From: a virus
Lineage: Duplodnaviria > Heunggongvirae > Uroviricota > Caudoviricetes
Reading direction: 5' to 3' (one strand)
IMG/VR virus record: IMGVR_UViG_2687453529_000004
Length of the DNA stretch: 45,019 nt
Shown: positions 1 through 24,219 of the stretch, in pieces
Layout of the letters: every line of letters begins with the position of its first letter
Numbering within the stretch: the first letter of the stretch is position 1
Translations under genes and position numbers: made by a program
The notes under the pieces: generated by a model
Told to the model about the DNA's origin: nothing
Seen by the model: the letters and a program-made list of their open reading frames with translations, nothing else
Database searches by the model: none

Positions 1-750
1 TCAGTCAATTGTTTTGTTTATTCCATCTGTGACGCCGATTATTTTCTCAAAATAATGAGATGGCGTGACACCATAATAATCTTTAAATGCACATATGAAA
101 TATGAAGTACTGTTATAGCCACATTTCTGGGCTACGACATTGATAGAATAAGAGTTTGAAGTTATGAGTTTTTTTGCATACCTCATCCTAGTATCTCTCA
201 ATATTTCAGTAAATGACGTTCCTTCATCCCTTAATCTTTTTTTTATTAAACTTTCACTCGTATAAATCAATTCCGCAATATCTTTTAAATGCCATTGCCG
301 CTCAATATTAAAACTGATTATTCCAGTAATTTTACAGGTAAATGTATTTATATTTGTTAGTATAAATGAATTTACACTTTCGCGTTTTTTGAACATGGCA
401 AGTAAGGATATACATAGTCTTTCTTTTAACCAAAGGGAGTGTGAGTCTGCTATTTTAATCCCTTCAAACAGAGAAAAAACAAGCGATAATGGAGGTTCCT
501 CTTCAGCAATATAGCCATTCTTATCAAGAGTAAATTTGCCAGGCAGCTCATTATTCACGTCGATAAAAAAGGATAAACATGTTTTCTTATCTATATCAAC
601 AATTCTTAGTTTAGAGGGGCATACTGGTAACTCCCTTCTAATTTTGTCGCTTACAATAAACAATGAATTTTTTTTGAACGAGATAACTCTCCTGTTTATA
701 ATTAAATCAAATGATTGACAGATGAAAACTACGGAGCAAACATAATCCAT
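1..750 (-). CDS. appY: AraC/XylS-family transcriptional regulator, AppY-like
   Basis: 249 aa ORF with C-terminal AraC-type HTH signature; sequence recalled as the DLP12 regulator AppY; AT-rich gene and upstream region. Confidence 0.6.
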
Positions 751-1424
751 CTTGCACCTATCATAAAATTAAAACAAGTTGATAGCAGTCAAATAACAAC
801 CAATTAAATACACAATCATAATCAGGATGATGTGCATTTATATTTTTATACACAAAATTATAGTTTGCAAATTTTAATAAATTTCATTTAAGATTAAATT
901 ATTATATGTATATTGTTTTTTATTCTAACGTATTTCAAAGTTACATTTTTCAACGCTTACTATACTTTTTATTAACATAAACTCACTACAACGCACCTGA
1001 AACCTCTTGCTATATATATGTCAACCGTTTGAATTTAAAATAAAAAGAGTATCATTTTTACTTGCATTTCTTATCAAGTCACATTCAACAACAGTAAAAA
1101 ACATTATTAGAACCATTCAATTAACAAAAAACCAACATCCAGCTTGCTTAATTTTTCTTTATTAAACGACATTGAAAATCAATTGATAAAATACATCTAA
1201 ACAACCTTTTGGGGCGCAAAAGCATAACATCAAACAAACAAATAACACACCGAAAAAACTCACAATTAATAACCTATGATATACATACTGTTTATTATGG
1301 TTGAATAAGCCACTCGATATCTGGTGCTACGGAAGTGTCCACACGGTTTAGCAGCACCCGATACTTTTTCCAGGCTTCCAGCAACGAGTTTTCTTCCTCC
1401 GTTGCATATACAGCTCACCTTTTT

Positions 1425-1718
1425 TCACCCACGATTAACCAACAGCCAGACCAGCAGACACGCCACCACCGGCACAGCAAAATCCATCAGGCTTGCCACA
1501 TCCCACGCGCGCGGATCAAAACCGCCCCACCACGGCATATTCATTCGCTTGCCATGCCCGAACATTTCGATCCAGCGATATTCTGCCTAGGTGTGTTCAC
1601 GCGCAATGAAGAACGTACAACCGGCTATCGCCCCGTAAGCCCAGTTCCCGGTAAAAAGACCAATCAGTAGCTGCGCAGCCACAGCACAAAGCGCATGAAG
1701 GAAAGGTGTTATATCCAT
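1425..1718 (-). pseudogene. Small hydrophobic protein ORF interrupted by an in-frame TAG
   Basis: ATG at 1718 with AGGA 6 nt upstream; 43 codons, TAG at 1587-1589 (minus strand), then 54 more in-frame codons to TGA; hydrophobic segments in both halves. Confidence 0.3.
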
Positions 1719-1760
1719 TTTCATCCTACCCAATAAAACGGGGCGCTCGGCCCCTTAATA

Positions 1761-2801
1761 TTATTTAGACGCAAGCGCCGCCTCAATTGCAGATAATCTT
1801 TGTCTTAATTCTGCGTTTTCTTCTTCCAGTGCTGTTATCCTGTCGTCTGACTCTCTGGCTACCTGAACAAGCAAACCCGTTACGCCTGAGTAATCAACGG
1901 TATAGTATCTTTCTCCCTCTTCTCCATCAGACCCATTGTCCCCGCTCTTGTACTTTATTGTGCTACCAACTGATTCAGGGATTGCATTAAGTGCCTCTTG
2001 CGCAATAACGCCAGCATAAGGCATACCATTAGACTTGAGACGGTAAGTATACCCATTCATTAATCTGATGCGCTCAGTGGCATTATCAATAACCTGAATG
2101 TTTTCTTTAAGATCTCTGTCCGACACCTGGTCGAATGATGTAGCCTTGCATGACCCGTTTATCTCAAGCTGATAGGTTTTATCTGGGTTCCTTTGTGCAT
2201 AAAACAAAAAAAGCCCGCCATCATCCCTAATTTCATAAACAACTGGACGACTGGAATTTCCCCATAATAACGTCGACACACCAGAATACGCCGTACCTTG
2301 CGTGTTTAGTGTCATGGTCGACCCGTGATTAGCATATTTGATCTGCAATGAGTCTGTATTATCAAACTTAATAAGCGCGTTACTTCCCCGCACACCATAC
2401 GACATGAGACAGTTCCCCATCTTAAGGTAACCATCACTGCCTGGAAAAATTAAAGTTCCTCCGTAAAGATCACTAAAGTCCCAAAAGATACCTTTTGTCC
2501 CGTTATGTGTGACGATCCTCGTCATTGTATCTTTAGTACCATCAATATTTTTTCTGGTATATATGTCACTATAAGCGTTTTCCGTTTCACCAGTCTTATT
2601 TGACAAATGCAGCTTACCGCTGAATATAGTTCCAGTTGTTGGCAATGTTTTTTGATCATAGATTACATTGCAATAACCATTCCATGTTGTTTTATTGTCT
2701 ACATAAGATTTTGTTGCGTAGTTTCCTTGATCGGTTTTTAATTTACTAACATCCGATTTTAGCGTTTTGATGTCATCAGGAATTACTGTTTTTGTAACCA
2801 T
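1761..2801 (-). CDS. Tail fibre / tailspike-like protein with C-terminal intramolecular chaperone (peptidase S74-like) domain
   Basis: 346 aa; C-terminal SDRDLKEN...LNAIP...coiled-coil tail typical of self-cleaving fibre chaperone domains; AT-rich relative to lambda genes. Confidence 0.55.
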   Translation of the reverse strand: MVTKTVIPDDIKTLKSDVSKLKTDQGNYATKSYVDNKTTWNGYCNVIYDQKTLPTTGTIFSGKLHLSNKTGETENAYSDIYTRKNIDGTKDTMTRIVTHNGTKGIFWDFSDLYGGTLIFPGSDGYLKMGNCLMSYGVRGSNALIKFDNTDSLQIKYANHGSTMTLNTQGTAYSGVSTLLWGNSSRPVVYEIRDDGGLFLFYAQRNPDKTYQLEINGSCKATSFDQVSDRDLKENIQVIDNATERIRLMNGYTYRLKSNGMPYAGVIAQEALNAIPESVGSTIKYKSGDNGSDGEEGERYYTVDYSGVTGLLVQVARESDDRITALEEENAELRQRLSAIEAALASK

Positions 2802-2813
2802 TGTCTTACTCCA

Positions 2814-3083
2814 TTAAGCCCATGTCCTTACATGCTGATCTGTCGTAATGAAAGGCATTAAAGAAGATATGTTTTTACTGCTATCAACAATCCTCATGTT
2901 TACGAAAAAACCACCGCGATCAATGCCCGTACATCTTTCGTTTTCTGGCTCCTCGTAATCAATAATGCAGCCAATAACATCAACAAGAACCCCATTTTCT
3001 TCTTCAAGACTGAACAGGCCACTGTCATATACAATTGCGTTAAACTGTTCTCTGTTATCGAATCGTAATGTTATATCCCGCAT
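2814..3083 (-). CDS. Hypothetical protein (89 aa) between the two fibre genes
   Basis: ORF only; no family recognised. Confidence 0.35.
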   Translation of the reverse strand: MRDITLRFDNREQFNAIVYDSGLFSLEEENGVLVDVIGCIIDYEEPENERCTGIDRGGFFVNMRIVDSSKNISSLMPFITTDQHVRTWA

Positions 3084-5446
3084 TATACGTATTCCTTAAG
3101 CTGCGTATCTGACAATGCTCTGTTCCAGAAACGGAGGTTTTTTATATGACCATTAAGGTGTCGTAATCCTGTCGTCGTTTGCCCCCCGATTCGAATCACG
3201 GCTGCTTCACGAATATATTTCCATACTGTTTTGGTTTCAGTGCTTATATGCTTATTTGCAAATGAGCATGTCATGCCGTCAGCCTTAACCCTGAATCCCA
3301 TAACGAGATCTCTTACTCCGCATGACTCATATACACGCCGGTTAGCCCCGCCTATATCGCAATACGAATAACCATCCTGACTGATAGTTCCAGAAGAACC
3401 AAACCCCATAATAAATGGGCCTCCGGACTGGTGATTTTCTGAATCAATGACACGCGGTGCAGCATTATGAGAAATAAACCAGTTTTTATGGACTTCCACC
3501 ATGAACGTAAAAGGCATGGTATACATATTTTTCATCAGCGGAAATTTACATAAATCTGATGCACGAGTCGCTGGCTCTGTTGTCGTTATGATAAAGGAAG
3601 TTGCACAAGCACCATACTCGAATTGCGGGGTGGTTACTTCTATCCAGTCACCTGTTGCAAAAGCCCCCACTGCTCTGTCGGCTGCAATTTGCAGCTGCGT
3701 ACCAACCATTCCCCATTCTGGCAGACATTTCAGTGTTGCCTGAAAATATATCCATCCACTACCAGGGTCGATTTCAAAGTTTGCTGTTAATAGCTGGGCA
3801 TTACCACCCGTAATTTGTAGTTCATGAGTCTGTAATGACAAATAGGCGTCACAAAGGAAAGTGTATCCTTCCGAGTTATACCGTTCAAAACGGATACGTG
3901 CGCGAACATTGAGATCACTTCTTACCCTGAACGACGCGGTAACATACGGACCTTTACTGTACTGATCATCGCCAGTCACATCTATGCCTTTATTACCAGC
4001 AACTGTGCATATATTTCTCCCTGTTGTCGTTCCTGCTATGTCGCTTCCTACTGTGAAACGTCCATATTTAAACTCAAATTCATCTGTTGATGATGTTACA
4101 GATATACCACCGCTTTTATTCCACGCATCAGGATTAAAACTATTTACGAACATGTTTGTTCGCTGATTCTCTATCAGCAAACCATATTTTTCAAAACGAG
4201 GAGCGTTATTCCCTGCCACGGTAATATGCCCGGACTTATCAATATACGTTGCTGATGAAGCGCGGCTAAATTGGCATATGCCATTAACAGGCATTGTTAT
4301 TTCATCACTGCCGATGGTTATTGTTTTATAGCCCGGGGCATACCCTGTTATCGCTTCCAGAGAATCATTCAAGGGTAGCCAGATATCAGGAAGCGGAGGG
4401 ACTGAAGCAGGATCAGCGGCATCTTCTGCAATCCGGGCTGCATTCTCTGCTCTTGTTGCGGCTGACGTTGCTTCTATCTCGCTGGCTGCTGCTTTTGTTT
4501 CACTCGTCTTTGCGTTAGTTTCACTGGTTTTTGCAGCTTTTTGGCTATTAGCTGCCGCACTTGCAGAACCAGCTGCGGCACTCTCGCTTTGGGCCGCTGC
4601 ATCCTGACTGTTTTTTGCCGCAGTTTCGCTGGCTTTGGCATTCGTTTCGCTGGTCTTCGCTGCCGTCTGGCTGGACTTTGCGTTAGTTTCACTCGTCTTC
4701 GCAGCTTTCTGGCTGTTAGCCGCAGCAGTTGCTGATCCAGCTGCTGAAGTCGCAGAACCGGCTGCTGCGCTCTCGCTTTCAGCTGCTGCAGCCTGGCTAT
4801 TTTTCGCCGCAGTTTCACTGGCTTTGGCATTCGTTTCGCTGGTTTTCGCTGCCGTCTGGCTGGACTTTGCGTTGGTTTCGCTCGTCTTTGCGGCTGTCTC
4901 GCTGTTTTTCGCGTTGGTTTCTGATTTTTTGGCTGCTGTCGCGGAGTTTGCCGATGCAGTCTGCGAGGACGCTGCCGCCTGTGCGCTGTTAGCTGCATTC
5001 GTTTCTGAGGTTTTCGCCGCGTTCTTCGATGATGCCGCTGCAGTTTCGGATTTCTTTGCCACCGCTGCGCTCTGAGAGGCGGCTTCGGCGTTGCGTGCCG
5101 CTTCTTCCACCATTGCCTCAAAACGACGCAATGCCTCCGGCATGACATCATCTTCCGTCATGGCACCGAGAAAATCATTCAGCGTACCTGGTCTGGAACC
5201 TTCATAGACGGTAATGGTTCCGGCATGTGAAGGCGGAAAACCTTCAACCAGCAGGGTGACGCTGTACTGGCCATACTCAACATCCATGCTGTAACGCCCG
5301 GCTTCATCCGGATTTTCAGAGGCCACCGTGTTCACCAGTACCGTGGTGCTGTTACGCTTTGCCTTCAGTTGAATAGTGCAGTTCTGTATTGGTTTTCCCG
5401 CACCATCTTTCAGCACACCTGAGATTTTTACTGCTGCCATATCCAC
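3083..5446 (-). CDS. stf: Side tail fibre protein with internal tandem Ala/Ser/Thr/Lys-rich repeats and a LamG-like C-terminal domain
   Basis: 787 aa ORF immediately downstream of lom; N-terminus resembles lambda Stf; repeats KTSETNAK/AAKNSQ visible in the translation. Confidence 0.8.
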   Translation of the reverse strand: MDMAAVKISGVLKDGAGKPIQNCTIQLKAKRNSTTVLVNTVASENPDEAGRYSMDVEYGQYSVTLLVEGFPPSHAGTITVYEGSRPGTLNDFLGAMTEDDVMPEALRRFEAMVEEAARNAEAASQSAAVAKKSETAAASSKNAAKTSETNAANSAQAAASSQTASANSATAAKKSETNAKNSETAAKTSETNAKSSQTAAKTSETNAKASETAAKNSQAAAAESESAAAGSATSAAGSATAAANSQKAAKTSETNAKSSQTAAKTSETNAKASETAAKNSQDAAAQSESAAAGSASAAANSQKAAKTSETNAKTSETKAAASEIEATSAATRAENAARIAEDAADPASVPPLPDIWLPLNDSLEAITGYAPGYKTITIGSDEITMPVNGICQFSRASSATYIDKSGHITVAGNNAPRFEKYGLLIENQRTNMFVNSFNPDAWNKSGGISVTSSTDEFEFKYGRFTVGSDIAGTTTGRNICTVAGNKGIDVTGDDQYSKGPYVTASFRVRSDLNVRARIRFERYNSEGYTFLCDAYLSLQTHELQITGGNAQLLTANFEIDPGSGWIYFQATLKCLPEWGMVGTQLQIAADRAVGAFATGDWIEVTTPQFEYGACATSFIITTTEPATRASDLCKFPLMKNMYTMPFTFMVEVHKNWFISHNAAPRVIDSENHQSGGPFIMGFGSSGTISQDGYSYCDIGGANRRVYESCGVRDLVMGFRVKADGMTCSFANKHISTETKTVWKYIREAAVIRIGGQTTTGLRHLNGHIKNLRFWNRALSDTQLKEYV
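4470..5090. repeat. Tandem ~200 bp coding repeats inside stf
   Basis: Near-identical DNA blocks (e.g. tgccgcagtttcgctggctttggcattcgtttcgctgg at ~4611 and ~4806); repeated peptides in the forward and shadow frames. Confidence 0.7.
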
Positions 5447-5504
5447 TCCACAAAAAAGCCCGCCTGAACCGGCGGGCTGTCATAACACTGTGTTACCTGG
5501 CTAA

Positions 5505-6104
5505 TCAGAATTTATAACCGACACCCACGATGAAACCGTCAGTGCGCCAGTCGCCACTGCCGGAGCCTTCATAAGCAATATCAATGGCCACGGATTCGGT
5601 CGGGTTAAACTGCACGCCAGCTCCCCACGCCAGAGACGTGTTGCTGTGGCGATCGTCATCACTTCCGGTCAGCACATCGTGCGTTTTCCCCTTGTTGTCA
5701 GTTACGCGGAGATAATCCCCGGAGAACGTCGAAACACGGCTGTAAGCCACACCTGCCATCGCATAAGCACTGAACCATTCATTCACGCGTACAGATGGCC
5801 CCGCCATCATGCTGAACCAGCGGTTACGCACTGAATCTTCATGCCAGCGGGTATCGCTGTAATGCGTTTTTTGCTCATCTTTGGCATTGGCATAACTGAA
5901 TGACGTCACCAGCCCCAGCGTGTCCGTAAATTCATAACGGTATTTCACGTTAATGCCCTTCAGGTCATCACTGCCTGGCATATCAGTATAGGTCTGAAGA
6001 TACCCGGCGCTTAGTGTGGACTGATGCTCTGCTGCGCTCGCTGGCGTACCAGCGGCAACCAGCCAGACTACTGCGGACAGAATAACAGCACATAATTTAC
6101 GCAT
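5505..6104 (-). CDS. lom: Outer membrane protein Lom (Ail/Lom family)
   Basis: 199 aa, signal peptide, C-terminal ...GVGYKF beta-barrel terminus; position after J. Confidence 0.85.
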   Translation of the reverse strand: MRKLCAVILSAVVWLVAAGTPASAAEHQSTLSAGYLQTYTDMPGSDDLKGINVKYRYEFTDTLGLVTSFSYANAKDEQKTHYSDTRWHEDSVRNRWFSMMAGPSVRVNEWFSAYAMAGVAYSRVSTFSGDYLRVTDNKGKTHDVLTGSDDDRHSNTSLAWGAGVQFNPTESVAIDIAYEGSGSGDWRTDGFIVGVGYKF

Positions 6105-6171
6105 AATTACCTCTCGCTTTTCTGCAATAAAAAAGGCGTCATTTCTGACGCCCGTATTGGGGTTATAAAAT

Positions 6172-9100
6172 TCAGCTGATACTGATGCCTGCGGTGGCTT
6201 TCTTCATCACCACAACCAGCAAATCGCTGATACTTGCTGTGGGATACCAGCCATTTACCAGCCATGCCGATACAGAAAATTCCAGTGTCATGACACCACT
6301 GCCTGCAGGCATATCAATAACACCCGTATATATCAGCGTATTATCCAGAGCCGTTCGGTTATAAATTTCAGCACCGTTTTTTCGTACTATCAGACGGCAT
6401 GAGGAGTAGATATCAGTATGATCTTGCTCATGTTTAGCGCCACTGAATGCCACCGCCGGGATAACAATTTGCCGGTCAAACGGCTGATCGTCATAAACCC
6501 TGACGGTAATGGTTCCTGATGGCCACCGCTCCGGTGCACGGGAGTCCCGGGGGAAAGCTTTGCCCACCGTTTTAACGAGATCGCCTTCAATCTGGTTCGC
6601 GGACAGTTTTCCCAGAACCCGGCAGTTCTCGTTAATCGTGACGTTGTTGAGCGTCCCGGAGTTCGCATTCACGTTACCGCTGATATCGGCATTTTTCGCC
6701 GTCAGCCGCCCGTCCGGTGTCAGGGAAAATGCCGGAGGATTACCGCCGCTGGTAATGGTGGGAGCCGTCAGATATTTCAGGAACACTTCGTTCATGAATA
6801 TCTGATCGCCCTGACCAACAAACATCGGCTTTGTGTTGCCATTCGCAGGATTAACCATCGCAATCCTGTCCGCCGCCAGCAGCACCTGACTCTGCATGCC
6901 GTCAGGGGTGTTCTCAATACCGGCACCAATACCCGCGATATAAAGGCGTCCGTCCTGCATCTGCTGCAGCTTCACAGCCCACATGCTGTTCAGGTTATTA
7001 TTTGTATCAACCTGAACCTTCTGTATCTGCTGGATCGCCGCACTCTGGTCTTCCAGTTTCTTATTGACAGTCTGCGTGATTTCATTGCTGACATCCGTAA
7101 TGGACGTCCTGATTTCAGCCAGGTCAGGCGCAAGCTGACCGTTATCAATCTGCGTCCACAGCTCCTGAGCCAGATGTGTTTTCCCTATCTCTCCTTTGAA
7201 AAAATCCAGGTAACCTTCCGCATCATCGCTCGCCCGACCGATAGCCTCCACGAATGCCGATTTGCCAACAGTATTCACACTGCGGATATAAAAGTAATAA
7301 TCATGGCCCGGTTTGATATTGATACTGGCGGCTATCCAGTACAGTGCCGTACCAAGATAACGCGCGCTGGTTTCAACCTGCCTGATATCCGCAATCCGTT
7401 TTTCCGAGAACCAGAACTCAAACTGTACCGTCGGGTCATAAACCGCAAGATGCGGCGTGGCGGTTATCTGAAAATAGCCCGGTGTCAGCTCAATCCGAGA
7501 CGGCGCTGCCGGTGCGGCAATCCGGAACGATACCGATGCCGGATCGCCCTGCTGTCCCCACGCATTTACCGCCCGGACTGTCAGCCTGTAGTTCCCCAAC
7601 GCCAGTTGTGTGAAGCGGTATGTGGTTTCCGTCGTCCGGGCCGTGCTGACCAGCCGCTCACTGCCGTCGTCCGCTGTTACGGTCAGACGGAGCAGGAAGC
7701 TCACGCCCTTCACCACCTTCGGTGTGTCCCAGCGCGCCAGCACCTGATATTCCCCGCTGTCTGCGGTGACTTCGGCAGTCAGGTGCTGCACCGCTGGCGG
7801 CGTGACACCATTCACCGTGCCGCTCTGGTCGCCGTCAAAGTGCGCCCCGTTATCCACGATGGCCTCTTTTTCCGGCACATGCTGCACGGCGGTGATGGCA
7901 TACGTGCCGTCGTCGTTCTCACGGATACTCACACAGCGGAACAGGCGCTGGCGCAGCGTCGGCAGCTTCAGCCCCCACACACTGTATTCTGCAACGCCGT
8001 CAGGAACCCGGTTCACTTTCACCTTAAGTCCGTCGGTGACGGACTGAACCTCCACGCTGACCGGATTACCACTTCCGTCAACCAGGCTTATCAGCGTGGT
8101 ACCGGAGGATGGCAGCGTGATTTCACGGTCGAGCGTCAGCGTCCGGGTCTGGCTGTTCACCGCCAGCACGCGACCACCGGTGCTGATACCGACATAGTCA
8201 TCATCGCAGATTTCAATGACATCGCCCGGTACATGGCGAAGCCCTTCAGCACCCACGCTGAAATCCACGGTCTGCGTCTCCAGCAGTTCCGTTTTAATCA
8301 GCCACAGCCCGGCGCGGTGTGCCTGCCCCCGGCTGGTACAGCCAAAGGCATCCATCTTCGTGACATTACGACCGTAACGGGCAATGGCCTGCGTATCTTC
8401 AACAAGCTCTGTCGCCGTCTCCCAGCCGTTGTCCGGGTCAATCCAGTTCACCTCAACGGCATTATGGCGGTCCTTCAGGGCGCTGAAGCTGTAGCGGAAC
8501 GGCGCGCCATCATCCGGCATCACCACATTACTGCGGTTATAGGTCCACACCTTATCCGACGGTCGGTCCTGCACGAACGTCAGCGTCTGCCCGTTCCATA
8601 CCGGCATACAGCGCATCGCCGAGCAGAAATCACTGAGCACATCCCACGCCTTGCGCTGTGTGGTCAGGTACGCATTACAGGTGATGCGCGGCTCCGTGCC
8701 GCCAAAGCCGTCCGGCACTGACTGGTCGCAGTACTGGCCGATGACATACAGCGCCCATTTGTCCACATCCGCCGCACCAAGACGTTTCCCCATGCCGTAG
8801 CGTGGATGGGTCAGCATATCCCACAGACACCAGGCCATGTTATTGCTGTATGCTGGCTTAAACGTTCCGTCCCAGATACCGCTGTATTGCCGAGTCTGCG
8901 GGTTATAGTTCGACGGCACCTGCAGAATACGCCCGCGCAGATGATAATTACGGCTCACCTGCTGGCTGCCGAACTGCTCCGAATCCACCTGTACGCCGAC
9001 CAGTGCCGTGTTCGGGTAGCACTGTTTCACATCGATGATTTCGGTGTATGACGACCAGAGCGTTTTGTTCTGCAGCTGGTCTGTGGTGCTGTCCGGCGTC

Positions 9101-9651
9101 ATCCTGCGCATCCGGATATTGAACGGGCGCGGCGGCAGGTTATCCACCACCACCGAGGCCAGATACTGCGAGGTGGTTTTGCCCTTAATGGTGATGTCTT
9201 TTTCCGTCACCCAGCCACCATTACGCTGTATCTGAACCAGCAGGCGGACTTCCGACGGATTCCGGTCCCCCTTTGAGGTGGTTTCCACCAGTGCCTGTAC
9301 ACCGAAGGTAAAGCGCAGACGGTCGATGTTTGCCGACGTGATGGTCCGGGTGATCGGCGTGTCATATTTCACTTCCGTACCCAGCACCGTCTCGGAGCCG
9401 GAGGATTCAAATCCCTCCGGCGGTGACTGCTCCTGCTCACCGGTCCGGAACACCACCGTGACGCCGGAGATATTGGTATTCCCCTCACTGTCCAGCACCG
9501 GCGTACTGTTCAGCAGCACGCTTTTTAATCCGTCCACCGGACCTTCAACCGGCCCTTCGCTGATGGCATCGATCACACTCAGCAGCTGCGTGGACTTCAG
9601 GTTGTCCTTCGCTTCGCGCGGGGTATGCCCCTTACTGCTGCCTTTACCCAT
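6172..9651 (-). CDS. J: Tail tip attachment / central tail fibre protein J
   Basis: 1159 aa; N-terminal region matches recalled lambda gpJ (1132 aa); C-terminal receptor-binding end appears divergent. Confidence 0.9.

Positions 9652-20513: not shown

Positions 20514-24193
<3,680 letters not shown>

Positions 24194-24219
<26 letters not shown>

Follow-up and report, generated by a model that had tools for sequence, protein, structure and literature searches.

A portable three-gene cassette proposed to encode a composite side tail fiber in an Escherichia coli lambdoid prophage

Three fiber genes behind J and lom

The IMG/VR record IMGVR_UViG_2687453529_000004, a sequence of 45,019 nucleotides whose whole length is referred to here as the window, is an Escherichia coli lambdoid (lambda-like) prophage. 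We analyzed its side tail fiber locus, at which an original prediction made from the sequence alone had described three genes in place of lambda stf-tfa. These open reading frames (ORFs) of 787, 89 and 346 amino acids (aa), namely stf, a small gene and f2, were found consecutively on the minus strand at the predicted coordinates and are all intact (Table 1). stf lies downstream of J and lom in a lambdoid late operon, the position expected of a lambda-type Stf. Translation of stf likely starts at ATG 5440, a codon preceded by GGAG at 5 nt and aligned with the MAVKISG start of the lambda protein; this start gives a product of 785 aa. The ATG of the 89-aa gene overlaps the stf stop codon by 1 nt (TAATG) at position 3083, and the f2 ATG is preceded by GGAG 8 nt upstream.

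The N-terminal part of Stf was readily assigned. Residues 5–134 matched Pfam PF08400 ('Prophage tail fibre N-terminal'; E = 3e-66, 221.9 bits against a cut-off of 26.6), residues 5–97 matched the solved lambda Stf collar domain (9E7M/9MGH, E = 7e-49) and residues 5–275 were 58% identical to lambda orf-401. The collar structure and architecture of the Ur-lambda Stf have been described, with the lambda rod spanning residues 102–393 (PMC12617516). As lambda Stf has the same kind of rod, that of the window is not expanded: it is no longer than the lambda rod and consists of the usual Stf heptad coiled-coil sequence, so the gene does not merit the label 'repeat-expanded' it had been given. The tandem coding repeats themselves are real, although their size and extent had to be revised from ~200 bp over ~4470–5090 to the duplication of 189 bp detected by TRF (Table 1). 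Nested 21- and 42-bp (7- and 14-aa) periods were also detected by TRF over ~4490–4940. When the Stf protein was matched against itself, the best offsets were 63, 7 and 14 residues, the duplication corresponding to 63 aa, or nine heptads.

A comparison of repeat copy number across strains gave no support for expansion, as the length of the rod was unchanged in 25 of 26 close IMG/VR relatives; the remaining relative carries an additional 7 aa (one heptad) at residue 288. Neither do the repeats collapse on re-assembly, a possibility raised beforehand: 44 complete E. coli genomes match window positions 1–6200 at ~100% identity over at least 80% of the length, the stf locus included. Given this match and the constancy among the relatives, an assembly artifact or an unstable expansion was excluded as the source of the repeat. 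In NZ_CP019029, stf differs from that of the window by one single-nucleotide polymorphism (A415V) and the ORF is intact in both. The PGAP annotation of that genome splits the gene (6084–8447) into a 403-aa 'phage head spike fiber domain-containing protein' and an 'incomplete' N-terminal pseudogene, leaving the repeat region unannotated. A frameshifted stf, as the split would imply, was rejected; because the ORF is uninterrupted and one residue differs, the split is an annotation artifact. Feature names listed in many other genomes suggest that the same mis-split recurs there. Three ORFs in other frames of the stf repeat, at 4474–5151 (minus strand, 225 aa), 4635–5075 (plus strand, 146 aa) and 4729–4992 (plus strand, 87 aa), translate the biased repeat into Arg/Gln/Pro-rich or Ala/Phe-rich sequences and are almost certainly not genes. 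Dozens of NCBI entries for Stf of the window type are 'partial' proteins cut at varied points. Short-read assemblies seem to break in or near stf, presumably owing to several resident prophages that share its 5′ part; matches to the window 1–6200 query were found at a median of 3 (up to 16) places in E. coli genomes.

Downstream of the rod, Stf continues into a C-terminal module (CTD) that is common to fibers of T5-like, Queuovirinae, Dhillonvirus, Drexlerviridae, Vequintavirinae and P2-like phages, with 216 phage records, 347 IMG/VR matches and 1,397 database proteins. Column entropies of 0.49, 1.01 and 0.48 for CTD positions 1–96, 97–270 and 271–442, respectively, delimit two conserved flanks (Stf residues 346–440 and 615–787) around a central domain that is the most variable part. 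Residues 424–629 matched NCBIfam NF048003, 'GTA/phage head spike fiber domain' (47.9 bits against 36; GTA, gene transfer agent), and the CTD profile matched the RcGTA head spike fiber Rcc01080 (PDB 6TB9, E = 2e-9). Rcc01080 binds capsular polysaccharide, is described as lectin-like and is fixed in place through its N-terminal 10 residues (PMC10218006). An AlphaFold2 (AF2) monomer model of the CTD, built from a shallow alignment of 34 sequences, was confident only for residues ~435–615, and this confident part showed fold similarity to beta-sandwiches of the CBM4/CBM22 type (CBM, carbohydrate-binding module). The 'LamG-like C-terminus' of the original prediction is plausible for the last ~50 residues of Stf, although their match to Laminin_G_3 (PF13385) covers the last third of the model only and falls below the threshold (21.3 bits against 27.6, E = 3e-4); the solid match in this module is the GTA/phage head spike fiber domain instead. 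Sub-threshold Laminin_G_3 matches were obtained for 16 of 34 relatives (best E = 8e-5). The equivalent end of Gp22 of phage Bas32 has been called 'galectin-like' (Humolli et al., PMC11990801). From these similarities, we infer that the CTD may bind glycans.

The 89-aa product had been described as an unassignable orphan. It matched phrog_1361 over its full length (E = 1e-30) and thus belongs to a known family, itself without an assigned function. Its gene has a G+C content (GC) of 0.389, is translationally coupled and forms an obligate part of the cassette described below. A word-index search with the 89-aa protein alone returned only four fragments, and a profile of eight cassette homologs was needed to recover the family. 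This profile found 353 homologs (database clusters), all named 'hypothetical'. In an exhaustive HMMER search of 1.84 billion representatives, none of the 83 homologs found was fused to a fiber. The AF2 model was of moderate confidence (pLDDT 75.6) and showed an alpha+beta, beta-alpha-beta4-alpha fold, for which no informative neighbor was found in the PDB or BFVD; Foldseek against BFVD returned uncharacterized small phage proteins only. No similarity to known fiber chaperone families was detected in Pfam, NCBIfam or the PDB, and assignment of the protein as a chaperone of the Caudo_TAP/Tfa, gp38 or gp57A type was rejected for want of similarity in sequence or fold. The small-protein profile also matched 5–7 stretches in each of five giant PKD-repeat proteins (P0280, P0300, P0301, P0312 and P0307). 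These matches share a strand pattern ('...TL.L.F.D...DGY.V.VRV.DDDG') and are probably a motif-level resemblance, although a distant fold relationship might underlie them.

The third gene, f2, is AT-rich as predicted (GC 0.404, compared to 0.564 for J), and over residues 1–333 its product is 93% identical to gp25 of Nonagvirus JenP1. Profile searches bore out both the fiber homology and the intramolecular-chaperone domain predicted for it. PF13884 (Peptidase_S74) was matched at residues 227–278 with 47.4 bits against a gathering score of 22. The catalytic Ser and Lys are spaced five apart in S227-D-R-D-L-K232 (codons 2121–2123 and 2106–2108, respectively), and S227, D228 and K232 are invariant in eight relatives. 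A profile including f2 matched residues 530–1073 of DT57C LtfA (E = 2e-62), as well as other S74 chaperone structures, with PDB hits to 6F45 and MYRF (7DC3). From the sequence, self-cleavage at Ser227 is predicted to leave a mature f2 of ~226 aa. No enzymatic (sialidase or beta-helix) domain was detected in f2. At the other end of the protein, M1, T3, T5, I7, P8, D10, I11, L14 and K15 are invariant in eight third proteins from lambdoid, Queuovirinae and T5-like phages.

Table 1. Features of the side tail fiber locus and its surroundings, in window coordinates.
Feature	Position	Strand	Remarks
stf	3083–5446	-	ORF of 787 aa from GTG 5446; phrog_1419, full length
Stf N-terminal collar/anchor domain, aa 5–97	5156–5434	-	PDB 9E7M/9MGH, PF08400
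Ala/Ser/Thr-rich heptad coiled-coil rod, aa ~100–350	4397–5149	-	GC 0.556
Tandem duplication in the rod	4563–4906	-	189 bp × 1.8 copies, 88% matches (TRF)
Stf CTD, aa 351–787	3086–4396	-	GC 0.435; flanks conserved, center variable
Variable beta-sandwich, CBM-like, aa ~435–615	3602–4144	-	within the GTA-spike-homologous region
Conserved extreme C-terminus of Stf, aa ~735–783	3098–3244	-	...GHIKNLRFWNRALSDTQLKEY; sub-threshold Laminin_G_3
89-aa gene	2814–3083	-	phrog_1361, full length
f2 (346-aa gene)	1761–2801	-	phrog_4563, full length, E = 5e-200
f2 N-terminal motif	2757–2801	-	MVTKTVIPDDIKTLK; proposed docking peptide
Peptidase_S74 intramolecular chaperone domain, aa 227–346	1764–2123	-	PF13884; coiled coil at end
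J	6172–9651	-	GC 0.564
lom	5505–6104	-	Ail_Lom, E = 1e-126
Terminator-like hairpin between lom and stf	5457–5478	-	8 bp, 7 of them GC, then T6
Terminator-like GC hairpin and T-run directly after f2	1740–1754	-	cassette transcript probably ends here
Pseudogene of a ~97-aa hydrophobic membrane-like protein	1425–1718	-	amber codon 1587–1589 (Q44 to stop); internal stop in PGAP
tfa 3′ remnant, 36 codons	1298–1405	-	right-hand recombination scar
appY, beyond an AT-rich spacer	1–750

Recurrence of the cassette and its junctions

The same gene order, a fiber gene ending in the CTD followed by a gene of ~90 aa and a third fiber gene, was found in the lambdoid phages PhiR11_1 and Tritos, in the virulent Queuovirinae JenP1, ESCO3 and VogelGryff, in the T5-like phages IrisVonRoten and AKFV33 and in P2-like prophages. 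It also occurs in Drexlerviridae tunzivis and in Dhillonvirus KarlBarth, with a third gene that the annotation splits into two coding sequences. Across these triplets, the fiber protein is 34–66% identical to that of the window, mostly in the CTD, and the small protein 29–33%. What stands at the N-terminus of the first protein varies by lineage: a lambda collar, a T5 pb1-type or a P2 gpH-type domain, the last with PF12571/PF03406. The bodies of the third proteins are wholly different, and all share the start M-[VAT]-T-x-T-x-IP-x-DI-x-x-LK, including those of the P2-like phages, Drexlerviridae and Dhillonvirus.

For a systematic check, 80 IMG/VR loci were retrieved with the CTD alignment. In 78 of them the small gene overlaps the fiber-gene stop codon by 1 or 4 nt, while the other two end within 410 bp. 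Of the 65 third genes found, 64 carry the N-terminal motif, the exception having one substitution in it. Loci whose CTD and 89-aa gene match those of the window at 98% identity or more have third genes of 346, 227, 234 or 363 aa. It is the type of the CTD and small protein, not the type of tip, that the first eight residues of the third protein track: MVTKTVIP occurs with the 89-aa small protein and MATSTVIP with that of 93 aa. In the P2-like third protein (303 aa) and in one from an IMG/VR locus (L065, 340 aa), S74 is absent, a Caudo_TAP (Tfa) gene follows and the motif is kept. As the motif is kept with S74 and with Tfa tips, a tip can bring either type of chaperone. The parts that stay unchanged across cassettes are the CTD, the small protein and the N-terminal peptide. 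Near-identical cassettes are present in the inducible phages PhiR11_1, PhiR47_1 and PhiR55_1, which form plaques on K-12, E. coli C or ECOR13.

The original suggestion, that a host-range module was exchanged for the lambda stf C-terminus and tfa, is borne out by the gap in homology to lambda, by the drop in GC and by the exchanged third genes. DNA homology to lambda extends over window positions 5632–5088, from the lom 3′ end into the first ~120 stf codons (84%), ends inside the coiled-coil rod at ~5088 and resumes only at 1406–1309, the last ~100 bp of tfa (85.7%). No DNA homology to the lambda stf C-terminus or tfa was found between 5088 and 1406. GC is 0.39–0.44 over the CTD, the small gene and f2, compared to ~0.56 in the rod and J. 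The left junction varies with the relative compared, homology ending near 4550 with phage 2G7b and near 4860 with mEp460, and the heptad-coding repeats may have served as the recombination substrate. Window positions 1–1405 are 99.4% identical to DLP12 from appY into tfaX, which places the right junction inside the tfa 3′ remnant.

The claim that no Tfa homolog is present held for an intact gene; a tfa 3′ remnant of 36 codons was found just outside the interval then considered and is 86% identical in aa to the C-terminus of K-12 TfaD. A lambda-type, gp37-like tip matured by a separate Tfa was not found in the window, in which no orf-314 or Tfa homology exists beyond the remnant. A tblastn search of the window for other Tfa genes returned the remnant and one match at 23824–24039 to the N-terminal 78 residues of K-12 TfaD. 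This match lies inside the long ORF at 22294–24219 and is probably not a Tfa, being read as the packaging-gene-derived part of that annotated ORF.

The closest described case is the Gp22/Gp24 lateral fiber of Tequintavirus IrisVonRoten (Bas32). An AlphaFold-Multimer model places the distal Gp24 on the end of the proximal Gp22, which has a protruding galectin-like C-terminal domain; this attachment model is a prediction, and the small Gp23 is not discussed in that work (Humolli et al. 2025, PMC11990801). The two loci share the three-gene order and the overlapping stop and start between genes 1 and 2. The window Stf is 45% identical to Gp22 over residues 133–787, the whole CTD included, the small proteins are 33% identical and the third proteins have in common the motif MVTKTVIP.DI..LK and a C-terminal S74 chaperone. 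They differ in the anchor, which is a lambda collar in the window and a T5 pb1-type N-terminus in Bas32, in the tip, which is short in the window (346 aa) and a 574-aa T-shaped protein with dual receptor-binding domains in Bas32, and in that the window is a temperate lambdoid prophage.

Other known fibers correspond to parts of the cassette. With lambda (Ur-lambda) Stf-Tfa, the window shares the position after J and lom, the collar domain and the heptad rod, whereas the gp37-like distal coiled coil, the OmpC-binding tip and the separate Tfa are all replaced, and the tip is made as its own polypeptide, which carries an intramolecular chaperone. The S74 fibers K1F endosialidase, T5 pb1 and DT57C LtfA likewise have PF13884, the Ser/Lys pair and a C-terminal coiled coil. 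In T5 pb1 and DT57C LtfA, however, anchor, shaft and tip form one polypeptide of at least 1076 aa, whereas the window tip is encoded by a separate gene with an N-terminal motif. RcGTA Rcc01080 (GhsB) is homologous to Stf residues ~400–647 but is a free-standing protein of 325 aa, attached to the capsid through its N-terminal 10 residues; in the window the domain is fused to the end of a tail-fiber shaft and followed by a further ~140 conserved residues. DT57C LtfA/LtfB resembles the cassette in that one receptor-binding polypeptide carries another and both have a C-terminal chaperone domain. It differs in lacking the CTD module; no ~90-aa gene was noted there, and no LtfB-type protein was identified in the window. 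The Eligo paper on lambda-STF engineering (PMC11338833) does not mention the cassette.

A proposed composite fiber and its alternatives

We consider that the region probably encodes one composite side tail fiber, built from a portable three-gene cassette. By homology to lambda, Stf would be anchored to the tail tip by its collar and extend as a trimeric heptad coiled-coil rod. The CTD, with a variable CBM-like beta-sandwich set in conserved flanks and a concanavalin/LamG-like end, may provide a second, glycan-directed contact. The 89-aa protein, made in step with Stf through the 1-nt overlap, would bind the conserved part of the CTD as a connector or assembly factor. f2 would trimerize with its own S74 chaperone, which, judging from the invariant residues, would then cut itself off at Ser227 using Lys232; because f2 carries this chaperone, no Tfa would be needed. 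Mature f2 would then plug into the CTD and/or the small protein via its N-terminal peptide MVTKTVIPDDIKTLK. This docking is suggested by comparative genomics, as the motif is kept in phages with unrelated tails and baseplates, in which the CTD and the small protein are the only shared partners. The assembled fiber would have a proximal shaft, bearing a lectin-like domain at its side, and a distal tip that binds the receptor and can be exchanged. The observed junctions suggest that the cassette was gained by recombination in the repetitive coiled-coil DNA and the conserved tfa 3′ end, and the observed variants show that tips were further exchanged right after the conserved N-terminal codons of the third gene.

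More tentatively, the ~90-aa protein and the conserved CTD flanks may form a universal 'socket' for which the 15-residue N-terminal peptide is the 'plug', the small protein then representing a new class of structural connector. If this possibility proved true, it would be an undescribed connector with which at least six unrelated coliphage lineages, siphoviruses and myoviruses, temperate and virulent, swap tips whatever the chaperone system.

Several observations weigh against the composite fiber. Vequintavirus FFH2 (L092, 1336–6107) encodes a 1479-aa rV5-type fiber that ends in the CTD, and its 110-aa small homolog (E = 1e-15, overlapping start) has no adjacent motif-bearing third gene. In two IMG/VR prophages (L028, 5558–5706; L033, 7598–7746), most of f2 is deleted (the equivalent of window positions 1887–2808), and stf, the 89-aa gene and the membrane-protein gene remain. 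From FFH2 and these prophages it follows that the pair of CTD and small protein can exist without a tip, or that the tip gene lies elsewhere. The conserved CTD flanks, the proposed docking part, had a pLDDT below 40 in the AF2 monomer, which leaves the docking surface hypothetical. Finally, a recombination hotspot, instead of a binding interface, could account for part of the conservation seen in the first codons of the third gene. Downstream of the deletion, both L028 and L033 have a Stf-N-like 347-aa gene and then a ~197-aa gene whose start resembles tail-fiber assembly proteins.

The alternative that fares best leaves the rest of the model as it is and concerns the 89-aa protein, which could be a non-structural assembly chaperone that acts on the Stf C-terminus, or holds the docking site open, and stays outside the virion. 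We regard this role as conceivable and give it similar weight to a structural one. Small genes behind fiber genes are often chaperones, such as lambda Tfa and T4 gp38/gp57A, and the failure of the AF2 monomer on the conserved CTD flanks may mean that they need a partner to fold. The translational coupling fits a chaperone and a connector equally. The lack of similarity to known fiber chaperone families argues against such a role, as does the third protein already having a chaperone of its own, S74 or Tfa. So does the finding that the type of the small protein co-varies with the CTD and with how the third protein begins, a pattern that is also compatible with a permanent interface.

Less likely, f2 is an independent second fiber or tailspike, mounted on the tail tip (J and tail-tip proteins) or directly on the Stf shaft as LtfB is on LtfA, and the CTD is the receptor-binding tip of the first fiber, giving two separate or branched binders. 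Branched lateral fibers are documented in the T5-like phage DT57C (PMC4728585, PMC10713586), the CTD itself plausibly includes a glycan-binding domain, and FFH2 and the two f2-deleted prophages have the CTD and small protein with no adjacent third gene. On the other hand, the motif is kept across lambda-like, T5-like and P2-like myovirus lineages with unrelated tails and baseplates, their coiled-coil shafts and N-terminal anchors differ, the CTD and the small protein are the only shared candidate partners, and the third gene always lies directly downstream of the CTD gene and the small gene. The 'second fiber or tailspike' of the original prediction is, on this comparison, probably an exchangeable distal piece of the same two-part fiber.

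That the module is a decaying, non-functional prophage remnant, as might be read from the amber stop in the adjacent membrane-protein gene, the reduction of tfa to 36 codons, the location at a site where K-12 has only a cryptic remnant and the split or pseudo annotation of stf by PGAP in identical loci, is very improbable, since none of the three cassette ORFs is interrupted, their ribosome-binding sites and coupling are in order, the split is an annotation artifact, near-identical cassettes occur in induced, plaque-forming phages and the long ORFs of the window downstream of J are arranged as in a full late operon.

Prophage setting and implications

In NZ_CP019029, the near-identical locus is neighbored by ybcH, envY, ompT and appY, the chromosomal site of the K-12 cryptic prophage DLP12. 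As the right end of DLP12 in K-12, from appY to the 3′ part of tfaX, corresponds to window positions 1–1405 (identity as above), a full-length prophage occupies the DLP12 site in the window and shares its right-end scar. The strong terminator-like hairpin between lom and stf directly precedes the stf ribosome-binding site, and a terminator is annotated at the same place in the lambda relatives mEp460 and Ayreon; stf expression presumably depends on antiterminated late transcription.

The membrane-protein pseudogene behind f2 has a GC of 0.544, unlike the cassette, and is found directly after the cassette and intact in PhiR11_1 and Tritos. It accompanies the lambdoid versions of the cassette only and matched no Pfam family; it could be a moron or exclusion-type gene. 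At window position 1102, in the intergenic AT-rich spacer upstream of appY, a run of 6 A corresponds to 7 A in NZ_CP019029. Other top genome matches span 6201 bases against the query of 6200 and may share the longer run.

The window is a further member of a widespread two-part lateral tail fiber family, and the change at its side fiber is an ordinary host-range swap. For the window itself, the main result is a correct annotation, that of a lambdoid prophage at the DLP12 site whose side fiber was rebuilt from a widespread cassette, and the analysis flags the recurrent PGAP mis-annotation of stf as a 'pseudogene' and a 'head spike fiber domain protein'. More broadly, the three cassette genes travel together through at least six phage groups, with tips exchanged right behind the 15-residue N-terminal peptide, and the question of wider interest is the role of this peptide and of the conserved ~90-aa protein. 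If the two do form the joint, a protein family listed as hypothetical in databases would gain a function, and the joint would be a transferable handle with which lambda-, T5- or P2-based particles could be retargeted by the third gene alone.

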